Source: a virus. From it: a stretch of 64,000 nt of DNA. Under the pieces are notes generated by a model. That model worked only from the letters and a program-made list of their open reading frames with translations, was not told where the DNA came from and ran no database searches. Shown here one piece after another: positions 6,027 to 54,032 of this stretch. Both the position numbers and the translations under genes were made by a program. The stretch lies in IMG/VR virus record IMGVR_UViG_3300020162_002681, positions 82,233 through 146,232 of that record, one strand, 5' to 3'. Each line of letters opens with the position of its first letter. Position 1 is the stretch's first letter.

Positions 6027-6398
6027 CTACTGTATCGTAAATTCTGGGGTATTGATTTCAACTGCTTGGAGTGTATATGTTCTATAGCACTGGTCGGCTC
6101 CGATAGTATAAATACCTCCATAGTCTATTCCAGTAACTACCCAAGTCTTGCCCCGAAAGGTGAACGTTTGATTTCCAAAAGTAGTTAGTGTAGGTTTCTC
6201 GAAAGGGATATCTGCAACTTTGATTCCCTCAATTGTTACCGAGATTGTCTGATAGGAGACAACTCCAGCAAGCAAAGTCGAGTTGTTGAGTAGGAAGAAG
6301 GCGTTCGCGTTTTGAGCATTAATTTTCCCAAAAGAAATTGCCCCCGATTTTAAGGGGTAGCCAAATAACTTCTCTTGGGAAAAACTAAGCCCAGCCAT
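6027..6398 (-). CDS. Putative distal-tail-like protein (paralog of 6402..6809)
   Basis: Position after the tape measure; visible similarity to its neighbour. Confidence 0.45.
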   Translation of the reverse strand: MAGLSFSQEKLFGYPLKSGAISFGKINAQNANAFFLLNNSTLLAGVVSYQTISVTIEGIKVADIPFEKPTLTTFGNQTFTFRGKTWVVTGIDYGGIYTIGADQCYRTYTLQAVEINTPEFTIQ

Positions 6399-13915: not shown

Positions 13916-14767
13916 TTATACGCCAGTTGGAGCAGCTACACCAGCAAGAGTGCGGTAGGTGTCGAGGTCAGTTTCATAACGACCGATGTTGTTGTAGGTC
14001 AGGCTGTCGTATACCAAGCCGTTAAATCCCTCAGTACTACCCTTAACTTGAGAACCGTTAAGTGCTGTAGTGTCAATGGTAATAACTGCTTTGGCAGTTG
14101 TCAAGCTATCGACTGGAGTTACTTTCAATACGGTGAATACTCCATCAATTGCGCCACCCTTGATAGTAACGTTGCCAGCAACACCAGTAGTTGCTACCGT
14201 AGAGTCGAAATCAACTTCGTTAGGGTTAGAGGTTGCTGTGCTCTTGCGAACGGCTGTGACACGAATTTTAGGGGTAATGGTGAGGTCAGCAATCTTACTT
14301 TCCGTAAGTGTTTTGTCAACGTAAATTTTCCTAGCTACATAATCAATCTTAGTAACAATTGTACTAGCTGGGATGCCAGTACCCGCAGAAGCTACTGTAA
14401 TTGCGTCACCAGATTTCACACCAAGGTTGGTGCTGTTATAAGTTTCGTCGAAGGTAATCTCTTTCAGTCCAGAAGCGAGGTAAGCGTCAGCAACAGTAAC
14501 GTTGCTCTTTGCGGTCAGCGAACCAGTAGCAACCGCAGTAATAAAATCGCCTACACGAACACCATCAAATGCACCAGCAACTTCAGCCTTCAGCTTGGAT
14601 TGAGTAGCGATAGGGATGACCGACGCAGTGATGTCAGCTTGAGCAAGAGCGATAGTGATAGGGATGTACTCAGAATCACCAATTGTCTTAATTGGGTTAG
14701 TACCGAAGTCTAGAGTTGTGAGAACTTTAGGGTTAGCTACGCCCAAAGCAATTTGAATATTTGACAT
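13916..14767 (-). CDS. Virion structural protein (possible major tail or accessory protein)
   Basis: 283 aa, Thr/Ala/Val-rich, own extended -10 promoter, between neck and chaperone genes. Confidence 0.5.
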   Translation of the reverse strand: MSNIQIALGVANPKVLTTLDFGTNPIKTIGDSEYIPITIALAQADITASVIPIATQSKLKAEVAGAFDGVRVGDFITAVATGSLTAKSNVTVADAYLASGLKEITFDETYNSTNLGVKSGDAITVASAGTGIPASTIVTKIDYVARKIYVDKTLTESKIADLTITPKIRVTAVRKSTATSNPNEVDFDSTVATTGVAGNVTIKGGAIDGVFTVLKVTPVDSLTTAKAVITIDTTALNGSQVKGSTEGFNGLVYDSLTYNNIGRYETDLDTYRTLAGVAAPTGV

Positions 14768-45027: not shown

Positions 45028-45056
45028 TTGACATTCAAAAAGAAACCTACTAAGCT
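45028..45056 (+). promoter_or_regulatory. Strong sigma70-type early promoter
   Basis: TTGACA-17 bp-TAAGCT with A-tracts upstream. Confidence 0.75.
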
Positions 45057-45096: not shown

Positions 45097-45142
45097 CGCT
45101 TAACTCTTAAATATTAAGCGATTGAACCTTGAAAACTGAATA
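45097..45142 (+). promoter_or_regulatory. boxB-like hairpin plus rrn-type boxA antitermination element
   Basis: CGCTTAA...TTAAGCG hairpin, then GAACCTTGAAAA-CTGAATA. Confidence 0.65.
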
Positions 45143-45439
45143 TAGACTAGCGTTAAATCGCATCAAGTAATCAGTCTTGAGCGTCAAAACTTAGTACCTG
45201 TGTAAAAGATATCCTGTGATAAGGTTACGAGTGGAAAAGTACGGTTAGTCAGCTTATCTAGATAGCCTAGCAAACTACTAGAGACGCTTGCATTATTGCT
45301 TAGTGTGAGGCTGAAAAGCTTGTAACACTTATAAAGAGAAGGGTAGGCGTTATTCAACCGCTAAACCTTAAAAAGTTTTTTCGGAAAAATTTCGCTAAAC
45401 CTCTTAGTCGTGCTTACTGTGCTGTTAGGGACTAACGAT

Positions 45440-45682
45440 ATGTTAACTACCGAACAATACAAATTACTAGAAACATTATCTAGCGATGACATCAGACTAA
45501 TCAAGAGCGCTGTTACTTCTGACAACGTTCTAAACAAAACACGCTTTATTAAAATAGGCGATGCAATGAAAACCCATAAACTCATAGAGAGAGGGATTAT
45601 TGAGTCATACACAATAGACGGAAAATATAAAACAAGCGTTACAAAGGAATATTTTTCTTTGGCTTGCAGACTAGCATCATAA
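45440..45682 (+). CDS. Early hypothetical protein (possible winged helix)
   Basis: ATG at 45440 directly after the left repeat arm. Confidence 0.6.
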   Translation: MLTTEQYKLLETLSSDDIRLIKSAVTSDNVLNKTRFIKIGDAMKTHKLIERGIIESYTIDGKYKTSVTKEYFSLACRLAS

Positions 45683-45843
45683 AACACCAATTATCAACAG
45701 CACAGCAAACACGATTAAGAACTCTCTATAAGTCACACTGTAAGCGCTTAAAACATTCTGAGAATATAGCGCTATATAAAACACTGTTACTTCTTTCTGT
45801 ATTCCATACTGTGCTGTATAACTACACATAGGAGAATACCAAA

Positions 45844-46065
45844 ATGACTGATATACAAGCAATTGAAAGAAAGATTAAAAAGAAAGATGGACTACTAAAC
45901 AGTTTTTGTGACGACTTAAAACAAGAGCGTTTAGATGGTATCAATACTACATCTACAGAAAAGATTATCAATGAAATATCTGATGAGATTGAAATACTAG
46001 AAACAAACCTATATAATTTGATACAGTTTGAATCATCCGCTAATTCTAGCTTATCGTTTGTATAA
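45844..46065 (+). CDS. Early hypothetical protein (coiled coil)
   Basis: AGGAGA Shine-Dalgarno. Confidence 0.7.
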   Translation: MTDIQAIERKIKKKDGLLNSFCDDLKQERLDGINTTSTEKIINEISDEIEILETNLYNLIQFESSANSSLSFV

Positions 46066-46266
46066 ACACTTTACAGCACAGCATAGAGTATAGAAAGAAG
46101 TAACTAAGACAATGACACACTTAACTTAAAACAGTTAAGGTGAGCTATAGGCTACTAGCTGCAAGATTGCTAGGTTAAACTATCCTTGCTACTGTAACTT
46201 GGTTAAGTTAGTCTAGTCCTAACTGTGCTGTAAAGCTTATCACTTGAAAATATAGGAGATAAGACA

Positions 46267-46464
46267 ATGTTAGAATCACTACAACTTTTCTACGGTTGGT
46301 TAGCAATAGCTATAACGTTAGAAATACATCATAATTCGTATATCTGCGAGTTACCTGATAATTTGCACTGTAAAGATATAGAATTTCATTGTATAGAACA
46401 AAACCTTAAATCGGATAGATGGTTAGCAGCAGCTAACGAATTACACAATAAGTTATTTAAGTAA
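46267..46464 (+). CDS. Early hypothetical protein
   Basis: AGGAGA Shine-Dalgarno. Confidence 0.65.
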   Translation: MLESLQLFYGWLAIAITLEIHHNSYICELPDNLHCKDIEFHCIEQNLKSDRWLAAANELHNKLFK

Positions 46465-46619
46465 ACATAGCTACGGTACAGCTAAGACTAGCACTGCTAG
46501 TTCGTATGAGTGAAAAGCTTGTAACATTATGGGAGAAGGGGTGTACCCTTATTCAACCCTATCTCATAATTTCTAAAAATTCTATCCAATAATGGCTTGG
46601 TTTTAACCAAGATAGAAAA

Positions 46620-46910
46620 ATGAATCAATTCTACGGTTTTTATGACGATTCTACTGATACAAGCTTAGTATTTGAAGCTGAGAACGGTAAGCAAGCTAAT
46701 AATTTAGCCTGTGATGAAGGTATCATTTTTGAAAATACCCATACTTGCGGTTGCTGTTCTAATGAAGTTTACAGATATGATGATGATGAAGAAGGGGGTA
46801 CTTGGGAAGAGCTTTTAGAGAGTTATCAAGAACATCCCAAAACTATAGAATATTATCGTCTAAAAGTTCATTTTTTAGATGATACTGTAAAGTATCTCTA
46901 TTCTAAATAA
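46620..46910 (+). CDS. Acidic hypothetical protein
   Basis: 96 aa with CGCC motif. Confidence 0.6.
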   Translation: MNQFYGFYDDSTDTSLVFEAENGKQANNLACDEGIIFENTHTCGCCSNEVYRYDDDEEGGTWEELLESYQEHPKTIEYYRLKVHFLDDTVKYLYSK

Positions 46911-47005
46911 TTGATTTTTCCTAGCTGTATCGTATCGCATGGTACAGCTAAGAGCAATCAAGCTCTTTTCATCCGTACTGGCTAGTCTATAAGGCTAGAT
47001 GATTT

Positions 47006-47314
47006 ATGCAATATCACGCTTTAACTCTCGGTCGCAATATAGGCGATACAGTTGACGCAATTCCTGTAGAGTCTGCTGTACAGTTTGTAGATTCTGAACT
47101 AAATGCACAATACGGTATAGATTGTTTCTCAGTCTATGAAGGTTGTGGGTATTGGTGCGGTAGTCGTGAAAATACTATTCGGTTTGAGATATTTGGGCTG
47201 TCTGATAGTAATGCTAGACAGTTAGCAGCTACTATCGCTACTCGCTTTAATCAGGAAGCTGTAATGCTCTTGTCTATCAACTCACGCCCAAAATTCATTA
47301 AAGGAGATGAGTAG
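47006..47314 (+). CDS. Candidate SAM lyase/DUF3574-like protein
   Basis: GYWCGSRE...A..IA.RFNQEAVML pattern. Confidence 0.5.
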   Translation: MQYHALTLGRNIGDTVDAIPVESAVQFVDSELNAQYGIDCFSVYEGCGYWCGSRENTIRFEIFGLSDSNARQLAATIATRFNQEAVMLLSINSRPKFIKGDE

Positions 47315-47482
47315 ATGGAAGCTTTAATCGGTGCTGTCTTGTTTGGTGCTGTTGCTCCTAGCTTTGTAGCCTTGAATCTGTTTATTTCTGGTATGCAAAA
47401 AGATGACAAAATTCGGAATCTTGAAACAAAGATAGAGACGTTTGAGACGGTTCTATCTGTAATGAAAAAGAAAGAATTTTAA
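47315..47482 (+). CDS. Small membrane protein (55 aa), paralog of 49081..49251
   Basis: MEALIGAVLFGAVAPSF...VMKKKEF; AAGGAG Shine-Dalgarno. Confidence 0.7.
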   Translation: MEALIGAVLFGAVAPSFVALNLFISGMQKDDKIRNLETKIETFETVLSVMKKKEF

Positions 47483-47587
47483 TGAGTTCTCCTATGCGGA
47501 TAGTCTTGTACTATCCCGTTAAGAGCATTCATTTTGCTGAATGTTTCTACTATCCTTTATGGCTTGGCTACACAGTCAAGATAGTTA

Positions 47588-48270
47588 TGTCGCCTAAAAT
47601 CAGTTTTATTCTCGCTAACGTAAATGAAAGCGTTATTCGTTCTCAAGTTGAGAAGTATTACAATCTATCTGTACAACATTATGCAGATACTAAAGATTGG
47701 TACGTTTCAGAATTTCACGAAACAGCAAAATTCTGTCACGCAGTTAACCCGAAGTTTACTTTGATTCAATGGTGTGGCGTTATTGCTGCCCTATCCCCCT
47801 CTACTTCTTGGGATAAAAATGTCTACTATGCGATAAAACTAGCAGAATTGACACAAGCAGAAATCAGTGAACCTGATACGCTGTACAACTTTGGGGTGAG
47901 GGCAATGTATCGGCTATCCTTGAAAAAATCCTTGCAAATTCTATCTATTGAACAAAATGAGTTGCAAGAATCTGCTATTTTGAAAATTTTGAACGCCCCA
48001 AAAACGTCTCATTTTTTCTTGAACGGGTTGTATCCTAATCAAGAAACAGGTAGCACTATAGACAGTCACATGGCACAAATCTTTTGCCCTGACTTAAAAG
48101 GGAGTCTGTCGCCTACTCTCGCCGCCTATCGTGAAAGTGAGAAAATCTTCAATCGTATTGCTAGGGAGAAGGGCTTGCTAAGTCATCAGCTTCAAGCTAT
48201 GGTATGGTGTGCGAAAGTGTATGGTGTGCCACGTCCTAAGCAGCTAAAACTTGACATCAACTTGGTGTAA
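47588..48270 (+). CDS. Conserved phage protein, possibly HhH-glycosylase-like fold
   Basis: WY...GVIAALSP.T.W..N, PKT..F..N, TIDSHM and QLQAMVW motifs; likely start MSPK. Confidence 0.55.
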
Positions 48271-48488
48271 TATCATGAAAAACGAAGATTTAATTGATAG
48301 ATGTATAGGTGTAAGCATATTCCTTATAAGTGCTTACTTATTTACAGCTTGTTTAGCAGATATTATCATTCACATTGCAGCTAAAACTTGAGGTAAAATT
48401 GTGAAAACTTGGGAATATACTAAACGCTCTTGACTATTCCTAGCTGTATAGTGTAAGCTTCTATACAGCTAAGAGTATTCACTCTAAA

Positions 48489-49037
48489 TTGTTCATTACT
48501 AAATCGGAGATGACAGCTATGTTACAAGAACTAGCAGACAGATATATTGAGGGTAGGGATGAGACTTCTTTTCTGCCCAAACTTACAGGCGAAATTCTGT
48601 CGGGTTGGATTAATCATGACTATGATGAAATTATCGATAAGGGCTTGCAAGTTGAGTTAACCGCAAATCCTGCAAGTTACAAAACCACGCAAGAGCTATT
48701 TGACGATATTGCTCAAAACAATCATGTATTTATTTTCTCTCTTTACAATCAACATCCTTTATGGGATGAAGCAACCAATCAAAAGTTGAGAGCAGTACAC
48801 GATTATCGTCATCACTTTGAGTCTGGCAAGAGTTCGCTAGGGTTTAGTCTGTACGGTGAGTTTGAAGCTTACCAGAAAGCAAAAACTGATTTGCATGACT
48901 ACTTGTGGAAACATGAAAGCGTACCTACACTAGAACTCTATCCTACACTTGACAAAATCTTGTTTAGCGAGATAGTCCTACAAGCTGCTGTAAAGCATTA
49001 CACTGGTGAATTTGCAGCACAAAAGATTGTGTTCTAG
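48489..49037 (+). CDS. Hypothetical protein with RAVHDxxHH motif
   Basis: NQKLRAVHDYRHH...GE...SEI..Q; possible metal-binding site. Confidence 0.55.
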   Translation: MFITKSEMTAMLQELADRYIEGRDETSFLPKLTGEILSGWINHDYDEIIDKGLQVELTANPASYKTTQELFDDIAQNNHVFIFSLYNQHPLWDEATNQKLRAVHDYRHHFESGKSSLGFSLYGEFEAYQKAKTDLHDYLWKHESVPTLELYPTLDKILFSEIVLQAAVKHYTGEFAAQKIVF

Positions 49038-53800: not shown

Positions 53801-53956
53801 GAGGTTTGCACAGACTTGACTAACCACTGCTACCAATCTCAAGGGTTCATCAAAGTCTTAACTATTCCTGATTTACTTTCTTTTCTGCAAAACAAGTACA
53901 AAGAAAAGTTTCCGCTAGCTAATTACATCGCAGTTGCCAATTACATTCGCAAATAG
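50861..53956 (+). CDS. Run of tightly packed hypothetical early genes (50861, 51121, ~51521, 51860, 52138, 52607, ~53061, 53738)
   Basis: Consecutive plus-strand ORFs, many with overlapping stop/start codons; no recognisable domains. Confidence 0.55.
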
Positions 53957-54032
53957 ATTCTCTCTCGCTGGATTAGCTCTCCAGCCAAAGGTAATCTCTT
54001 ACCCCAACCAACTACACTAAGGAGCAATTCCA

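Follow-up and report, generated by a model that had tools for sequence, protein, structure and literature searches.

A complete viral record of 146,232 bp with direct terminal repeats (IMG/VR record IMGVR_UViG_3300020162_002681) carries in its right-hand part three small open reading frames (ORFs), each placed between two sequence arms that can pair with each other across the whole gene. What are these arms for, and do they act as DNA or as RNA? The question was addressed in the 64-kb window formed by positions 82,233 to 146,232 of the record (64,000 nucleotides), to which all coordinates below refer. The nearest cultured relatives are the Pseudanabaena phages PA-SR01 and Pam2, and all relatives point to a cyanobacterial host. 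At about 44–45 kb the leftward genes give way to an arm of small, rightward-directed ORFs whose G+C content is lower, the early arm of the genome, where the three enclosed ORFs are found.

The arms were identified by inverted-repeat pairing on the + strand. Stem 1 (45402–45426 with 45696–45720; 25 positions, one G.U pair) encloses ORF 1 (45440–45682, 80 amino acids) and has a C.A mismatch at 45413.45709 and an A.C mismatch at 45416.45706. Stem 2 (45786–45818 with 46072–46104; 33 positions, two G.U pairs) encloses ORF 2 (45844–46065, 73 amino acids, AGGAG ribosome-binding site), and its mismatches are C.A 45805.46085 and A.C 45808.46082. In stem 3 (46213–46232 with 46472–46491; 20 positions, two G.U pairs), C.A 46219.46485 and A.C 46222.46482 are present, and ORF 3 (46267–46464, 65 amino acids) occupies the loop. 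The order of elements is common to the three: outer stem, C.A mismatch, two A-U pairs, A.C mismatch and an inner CUGUGCUGU stem. The pairs between the mismatches are UU/AA in stem 1, AU/UA in stem 2 and UA/AU in stem 3. The original prediction, made from the letters of this stretch, had described arms of 25, 33 and 20 nt around the three ORFs and a shared double C.A-mismatch geometry; all its coordinates were confirmed, and the geometry was found in all three stems.

In a whole-genome scan for inverted repeats within 2.5 kb, stem 2 ranked first and stem 1 second, with scores of 25.6 and 18.8; the highest score in shuffles was 17.9. A strict motif scan of the 146 kb gave seven + strand matches and one minus-strand match, with five + strand sites clustered at 45.4–48.5 kb, whereas each shuffled sequence gave 0–3 scattered matches. 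As both the repeat ranking and the motif scan exceed the shuffles, a chance origin of the stems is excluded. When 1.14 kb of sense RNA was folded, all three stems formed, and the inner base pairs of each had an average probability of at least 0.92. Cognate arms form duplexes of −30.4, −42.2 and −21.3 kcal/mol, compared to −13 to −20 kcal/mol for non-cognate arm pairs.

The strand on which the helices act was not settled by these three stems. Every departure from Watson-Crick pairing in stems 1–3 is a transition, and for this reason the reverse strand folds about as well. The G.U wobbles had been read as a sign of + strand RNA; within the three stems, with five G.U pairs against six C.A mismatches, this argument does not hold, and the assignment to the + strand stands on comparative data. 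For the comparison, the early arms of Pam2 and PA-SR01, the IMG/VR contigs L012–L014, the metagenome contig L061, and L069 and L070–L076 were used. L069 was found through a homologue of ORF 1, and L070–L076 through homologues of the gene following a local hairpin of this genome (hairpin B, below); a neighbouring gene annotated as P-II was a poor anchor for locating relatives.

The resulting catalogue holds 30 members of the stem family (16 long-range and 14 local), with 24 unique arm pairs, from this genome and nine related Pseudanabaena-phage sequences, and nearly all members are on the + strand. Loop size ranges from about 5 nt to a full unit of ribosome-binding site, ORF and stop codon. Two of the local members are in this genome on the + strand. 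Hairpin A (46911–46961), found by motif scan and family alignment, has its C.A mismatch at 46921.46951 and a G-C pair in place of A.C; hairpin B (48431–48481), found by the motif scan and a promoter pattern, likewise keeps C.A and has G-C in place of A.C. The alignment was anchored on the C.A mismatch, which is present in 24/24 unique arm pairs. Below it the lower stem has at least 5–6 bp and up to 19 bp. Above it, positions 1 and 2 are A-U or U-A in all unique members and covary, and the third position is A.C in 14, G-C in 6 and U-A in 4. Position 12 of the upper stem is still paired in 22/24, and at position 13 pairing drops to 15/24. In all 16 long-range members both mismatches are at fixed positions.

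Across the 24 unique arm pairs and 21 positions, 92.1% of cells are paired, and compensatory double changes occur at 15 positions. Controls with shuffled partners gave 73.5 ± 2.2% paired and 9.1 ± 1.8 double-change positions (maximum 14), and controls with a slid register gave 29–45% paired. The 14 local hairpins taken separately are 92.5% paired, with a covariation score of 0.275 against 0.101 ± 0.016, a value reached in 0 of 500 shuffles. The changes are also seen between orthologous stems. Stem 2 reads CUGUGCUGUA/UACAGCACAG in this phage and Pam2 and CUGCGAUGUA/UACAUCGCAG in L014, L061 and L070, a difference of two double changes. The pair adjoining its C.A mismatch is A-U here and U-A in the others (AU/UA to UU/AA). 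Orthologues of stem 2 with compensatory changes were found in Pam2, L014, L061 and L070. In the outer stem of the orthologues U.G is exchanged with C-G and G.U with G-C. The stem 1 orthologue in L069 has two pair-preserving changes (G.U to A-U and G-C to G.U), and the 5′ arm of stem 3 is near-identical in the eight relatives that have this stem.

Among the unique members, the non-conserved deviations read as sense RNA are 28 G.U and 8 A.C, and the strict motif scan gave 0–1 minus-strand matches per sequence in all genomes and loci scanned. Because of this G.U bias and of the changes between orthologues, the + strand is chosen. The data bear the signature of a helix selected in + strand RNA, with a mismatch that is likewise under selection, and the direction is clear. 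Selection on RNA structure had been proposed earlier for this locus; pairing kept through compensatory changes in orthologous stems agrees with it, and the compensatory changes anticipated in related phages are present at 15 of the 21 positions. At the level of sequence, the comparison shows the helices to be part of the backbone that is conserved in the early operon of PA-SR01- and Pam2-like Pseudanabaena phages. Our best explanation, held with about even confidence, is that they are selected sense-RNA helices on an antiterminated early transcript which would be processed by a host double-strand-specific nuclease.

The family seems to be confined to the PA-SR01/Pam2-like clade. The elements are absent from L062 and L065, which carry relatives (about 40% identity) of a neighbouring 226-amino-acid protein, and a pattern search of viral contigs for the local hairpin gave no match beyond the phage's own record. 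A hairpin at 53955–53997 was considered as a further member and rejected on inspection, as its geometry does not fit. At 6380–6460 of L069 there is a derivative of stem 2 that lacks the ORF and the inner 3′ arm, and pairing is left in its outer stem only.

The enclosed ORFs behave differently from the stems. ORFs 1–3 are orphans, with no match in Pfam or PHROGs. ORF 1 is evidently under purifying selection: its orthologue in L069 is 90% identical, with 19 synonymous and 8 non-synonymous codon differences. The 15 enclosed ORFs found across the genomes make up 11 families with no similarity between families, and 15/15 are in sense orientation. Each has its own AGGAG-like ribosome-binding site 7–8 nt before the ATG, and the stop codon is mostly 7–8 nt before the 3′ arm; ribosome-binding site and start codon are always in the loop and never in the stem. 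Stem 2 holds unrelated ORFs in Pam2 and in L014, L061 and L070. Conservation in cassettes of the stem-3 type covers the leader as far as the ATG and the tail beginning at the stop codon, and the coding part in between differs. No gene is present in stem 3 of PA-SR01, which is a simple hairpin, and in L069 a loop of 97 nt contains no ORF. The ORF 3 family is inside stem 3 in this phage and just after stem 3 in L070, where the homologue is 71% identical. The comparison shows the stems as a conserved scaffold and the ORFs as swapped cargo. Conserved intergenic blocks that guide gene exchange in a hyperplastic region have been described for cassettes of T4-type phages (PMC2839356; PMC4122927), and the swapping of ORFs has the pattern of such a region.

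A repeat of about 60 nt (..TGAAAAGCTTGTAACA..GAGAAGGG..TTATTCAACC..) was also observed at 45300–45370 and 46500–46570, just before stem 1 and just after stem 3, so that the three cassettes lie between two direct copies of it. It is also present in PA-SR01 and L070, and the ORF 3 homologue of L070 ends inside its copy. The next early genes, at 46620–46910 and 47482–48270, gave matches to DUF7296 and DUF7178 (PHROGs 4867 and 3842); unlike the enclosed orphans, they are conserved in the clade. The protein encoded at 47006–47314 has a weak match to DUF3574 (E = 0.0014) that is below the cut-off.

Promoter elements are embedded in many of the local hairpins. TTGAYT-N18-TAAGCT is present in 10 of the 14, where the −35 box falls within the 5′ arm and the −10 box within the loop; in hairpin B, for which the composite spans 48430–48481, TTGACT is at 48430–48435 and TAAGCT at 48454–48459, in the loop. 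The boxes are the same as those of the main early promoter and of the unstructured promoters of the early arm. Judged by these motifs, the promoter-bearing local hairpins are composites of early promoter and helix. The 5′ arm of stem 3 is homologous to the promoter hairpins (TAGTCT-N17/18-AAGCT), TAAGCT directly precedes the 3′ arm of stem 3 in L012, L013, L014 and L061, and stem-3 cassettes have AAGCT on both sides of the insert. Stem 3 has the look of a promoter hairpin whose loop contains a gene, and promoter-like boxes are lacking in stems 1 and 2. In L012, L013 and L014 further promoter hairpins were seen near positions 14222, 14334 and 10729 of the reverse complement, in which the second mismatch is one position nearer to C.A (CCUAACUGUC/GACAGUCAAG).

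Such composites raise the alternative that the arms are relics of recombination cassettes. They would then be halves of elements like the promoter-plus-stem-loop (PeSL) elements, working only as local hairpins (promoter, attenuator or crossover site), with ORFs inserted into the loops or swapped by homologous recombination and the long-range pairing tolerated and without function. The promoters in the local hairpins and the AAGCT boxes around the stem-3 insert are in line with this proposal, as are the ORF-less forms in PA-SR01 and L069 and the change of slot of the ORF 3 family. T4-type PeSLs with promoter-overlapping stem-loops, together with shuffling of orphan genes, are documented (PMC2839356). 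We nevertheless regard this alternative as unlikely. The orthologous long-range stems have changed around their ORFs with pairing kept (three double changes in stem 2 and two changes of the G.U type in stem 1), and both mismatches keep their positions in every long-range member. The private outer stems of stem 1 (11 bp) and stem 2 (19 bp) serve no promoter. Whereas PeSL terminators are G+C-rich, the stems here are rich in A+U and have no U tracts.

Processing of selected helices on an antiterminated transcript, the explanation favoured here, is also consistent with the head of the operon. Sequence reading and a pattern scan placed the main early promoter, TTGACA-N17-TAAGCT, at 45028–45056 on the + strand, and TTGACA-N17-[TA]AAGCT likewise heads the early arm in L012, L013, L014, L061 and L069. 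The early-promoter consensus of the phage group is apparently TTGACW-N17/18-TAAGCT, with AAAGCT in some main promoters (window 45028, 48430 and 53521; L012–L014, L061 and L069–L074). Three copies of the consensus are in the early arm of this genome, and a looser pattern is found five times in the whole genome against about 0.85 in shuffles. The promoter is followed by a leader of the rrn type (45097–45142, + strand, from sequence reading), in which a boxB-like hairpin (45097–45120) is separated by 3 nt from the boxA GAACCTTGAAAA (45124–45135), and CTGAATA comes after it. This boxA is an exact match to that of cyanobacterial rrn operons: GAACCTTGAAAA is the boxA of cyanobacterial 16S-23S spacers, where CTGCATA is D4 (PMC8461337). 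The 21-mer around the phage boxA also precedes the 16S gene in a Melainabacteria metagenome-assembled genome and long tRNA gene arrays in Laspinema, Cyanosarcina and Aphanocapsa. The boxA-like NNACCTTGAAAA and the promoter are conserved in the leaders of relatives. A boxA-type antitermination may be common to rrn operons, tRNA arrays and this phage. The best far-downstream pairing partner for the leader was an 11-bp match, which is at chance level, and no Rfam family was matched at 43–52 kb. The rrn antitermination complex is thought to aid formation of the long-range RNase III (ribonuclease III) stem of 16S rRNA (PMC8632103), and the boxA leader fits a reading of the helices as RNase III stems.

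RNase III is a plausible though unproven candidate for the nuclease and the best available mechanistic guess. The idealised Escherichia coli RNase III substrate has 22 bp with two-fold symmetry about the cleavage sites, and the enzyme makes two cuts across the minor groove, leaving 2-nt 3′ overhangs (PMC3867540). The mismatch site is likewise two-fold symmetric: it reads 5′-CNNA-3′ on both strands, with the dyad between the two A-U pairs. From this dyad to the conserved top the helix is 11 bp in nearly all of the 24 unique members, and the local hairpins span 21–25 positions with the site near the middle, a helix of about 22–23 bp that agrees with the idealised substrate. A bacterial RNase III substrate takes about two helical turns (20–22 bp, about 11 bp on either side), and the helices have 20–33 positions. 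Mismatches or loops at a site can limit RNase III to one strand, leaving protective 3′ hairpins (PMC3867540). Cyanobacteria generally have two full-length RNase III enzymes and one Mini-III, which cut E. coli substrates in vitro (PMC5829567). No RNase III gene was found in the phage genome, so a host factor would be needed. An ACCU-type site was not seen in the arms as printed, and no pattern search was run for it; this is the type of site preferred by the Mini-III of Bacillus. A phylum-wide pattern search for CNNACTGTGCTGT gave scattered matches, and the twelve CTAACTGTGCTGT matches that were inspected are in unrelated genes; these have no bearing either way on mimicry of host rRNA stalks.

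These features suggest the following course of events. Host RNA polymerase would transcribe the early operon from TTGACA-N17-TAAGCT, and the boxB-boxA leader would render it resistant to termination in the manner of rrn operons. On the long transcript a host nuclease specific for double strands, most probably RNase III, would recognise the helices and cut at or beside the weak CNNA/CNNA site. With both strands of a long-range stem cut, each orphan gene would be freed as its own mRNA, whose two ends, paired over about 10 bp, would be shielded in this way from end-dependent decay. If the cuts are CNN^A on both strands, the loop would be released with its ends joined by about 10 bp. At the local hairpins the CNNA site overlaps the internal early promoter, and processed read-through RNA and newly started RNA would begin a few nucleotides apart. 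A transcript initiated about 7 nt past TAAGCT would have its 5′ end inside the 3′ arm, a few nucleotides ahead of the predicted cut. Circularisation of the released mRNA, which had been raised as a possibility, is unsupported and was rejected, as the phage encodes no RNA ligase (no Rnl1, Rnl2 or RtcB was found).

Several points weigh against this explanation. The covariation counts take in paralogues and related genomes, and the events are not independent, so that the numbers are overstated. Stems 1–3 on their own fold equally well on the minus strand. The stop codon is only 7–8 nt from the helix, and terminating ribosomes would open the inner pairs. The stem-3 type resembles a promoter hairpin split by an ORF, and the conservation of its arms may partly reflect other roles. 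The geometry was judged by E. coli RNase III, which may not represent the specificity of the Pseudanabaena enzyme. Cleavage, RNA ends and transcripts are themselves predictions.

The helices could also be functional without being cut. In that case they might insulate the folding or translation of each cistron, set mRNA half-life or ribosome access (for instance by blocking scanning by RNase E), or offer a protein of the phage or the host a binding site at the CNNA bubble. The covariation and the strand bias apply equally to this possibility, the exposure of the ribosome-binding site and start codon in the loop suits it, and the weak four-position site could be a protein-binding internal loop. 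It is improbable in our estimate: a dimeric nuclease accounts better for the two-fold symmetry and for the conserved length of 11 bp above the dyad, and no candidate for a binding protein was found. With no RNase III encoded by the phage, a host factor is needed under either reading.

That the repeats act as DNA, as sites of inversion or excision, in cassette movement of the integron or transposon kind or as cruciforms, is very improbable: inverted repeats do flank cargo that differs between close relatives, and Pam2_175, the orthologue of the gene at 48510–49037, is annotated as a transposase, but the genome has no tyrosine or serine recombinase and no Y1 transposase, the enclosed ORFs show no sign of inversion, target-site duplications are lacking outside the arms, conservation is at the inner ends of the arms and not at the termini, the G.U bias is strand-specific, GTTRRRY core sites are absent, and the "transposase" family is modelled with confidence as all-helical and matches nothing in the PDB, Pfam or NCBIfam. 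In the complete genome PF00589 gave no match, and the arms are without GTTRRRY/RYYYAAC, which places them outside integrons and attC sites; with no Y1 transposase, no resolvase and no flanking duplication, they are also unlike terminal-inverted-repeat transposons, miniature inverted-repeat transposable elements and elements of the IS200 type. The protein family of 48510–49037 comprises 27 clusters, is widespread in lake metagenomes, and has H94, D95 and H98 among its invariant residues. Its AlphaFold model is all-helical (predicted local distance difference test score 91.7), and Foldseek found no match in the PDB. Going by this model, the transposase label on the Pam2_175 family is unsupported.

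Among known systems, the processed helices proposed here invite comparison with the leader-trailer stalks of bacterial rRNA operons, in which RNase III stems enclose 16S and 23S and which have boxB-boxA antitermination. There as here, the sequences flanking the product pair at long range, downstream of a boxA leader, and several helices stand in series on one transcript; the exact cyanobacterial boxA and the boxB-like hairpin at the operon head and a helix length suited to RNase III are further likenesses. The products differ, being protein genes of 65–80 amino acids and not rRNA: the loops hold ORFs with ribosome-binding sites, and Rfam gave no matches. The stretch spanned is about 280 nt compared to 1.5–3 kb, the double C.A motif is conserved in sequence here, and cleavage here is predicted.

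The RNase III sites in the early and late transcripts of phage T7 (R0.3, R0.5, R1.1 and others) are local hairpins between genes, often placed next to promoters. They share with the elements described here an intercistronic position in polycistronic phage mRNA made by the host polymerase, a helix of roughly two turns that is interrupted midway by a non-Watson-Crick element and, for some, a link to internal promoters. In contrast to T7, three of the sites here are split with a whole gene in the loop, the promoter is embedded in the hairpin and not beside it, and the host is a cyanobacterium.

The PeSLs of T4-type phages (PMC2839356; PMC4122927) are likewise composites of a sigma-70-like early promoter and a stem-loop in a short intergenic element, a description that 10 of the 14 local members answer to and stems 1 and 2 do not. 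They too are concentrated in a hyperplastic region of orphan genes, their stem-loop can overlap the −35/−10 interval, and conserved elements border gene swaps between close relatives. They differ in that PeSL stems are G+C-rich local terminators, present as direct repeats that flank ORFs, whereas the stems here are A+U-rich with a fixed mismatch motif and no trailing U tract, and the arms are inverted, two halves of one stem flanking the ORF. The phage lineage and the host are also different. Integron attC sites resemble the arms as imperfect inverted repeats with conserved unpaired positions and exchangeable single-gene cassettes. However, attC is a local hairpin downstream of the ORF that is recombined as single-stranded DNA by IntI, and in this phage there is no integrase, no R/L core sites and no attI, and the repeats enclose the ORF.

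A more far-reaching version of the processing model may be offered tentatively, as a possibility that we rate below the model itself. The early operon would mimic an rRNA operon, with the boxB-boxA leader recruiting the host rrn antitermination and RNA-chaperone complex. The host rRNA maturation machinery would excise each orphan anti-host gene from its RNase III stalk as an end-paired, long-lived mRNA, and the stalks would double as "sockets" with ready-made expression signals for recombined ORFs.

The original prediction knew of no description of this mRNA architecture in phages, and this held in our literature searches: no account of phage protein genes enclosed by long-range processing stems was found, though the PeSL cassettes (PMC2839356) are a published conceptual relative. 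The PA-SR01 paper does not mention the repeats; the Pseudanabaena phage phylogenomics paper covers Pan1–Pan5 with no mention of Pam2, and is thus silent on it. The conserved scaffolds with swapped ORFs, the ORF-less stem 3 in PA-SR01 and the putative early promoters in the local members go beyond what had been proposed before.

The prediction can already be tested, since both PA-SR01 and Pam2 are in culture. Being short, well delimited and portable, the element might find use in cyanobacteria for insulating cistrons. Should the stems prove to be processing sites, they would reveal how a single long, antiterminated early RNA becomes a set of separately stabilised messages for fast-changing orphan genes by means of the host rRNA machinery. 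New early genes, which are typically genes of host takeover or anti-defence, could then be acquired by these phages without evolving expression signals of their own.

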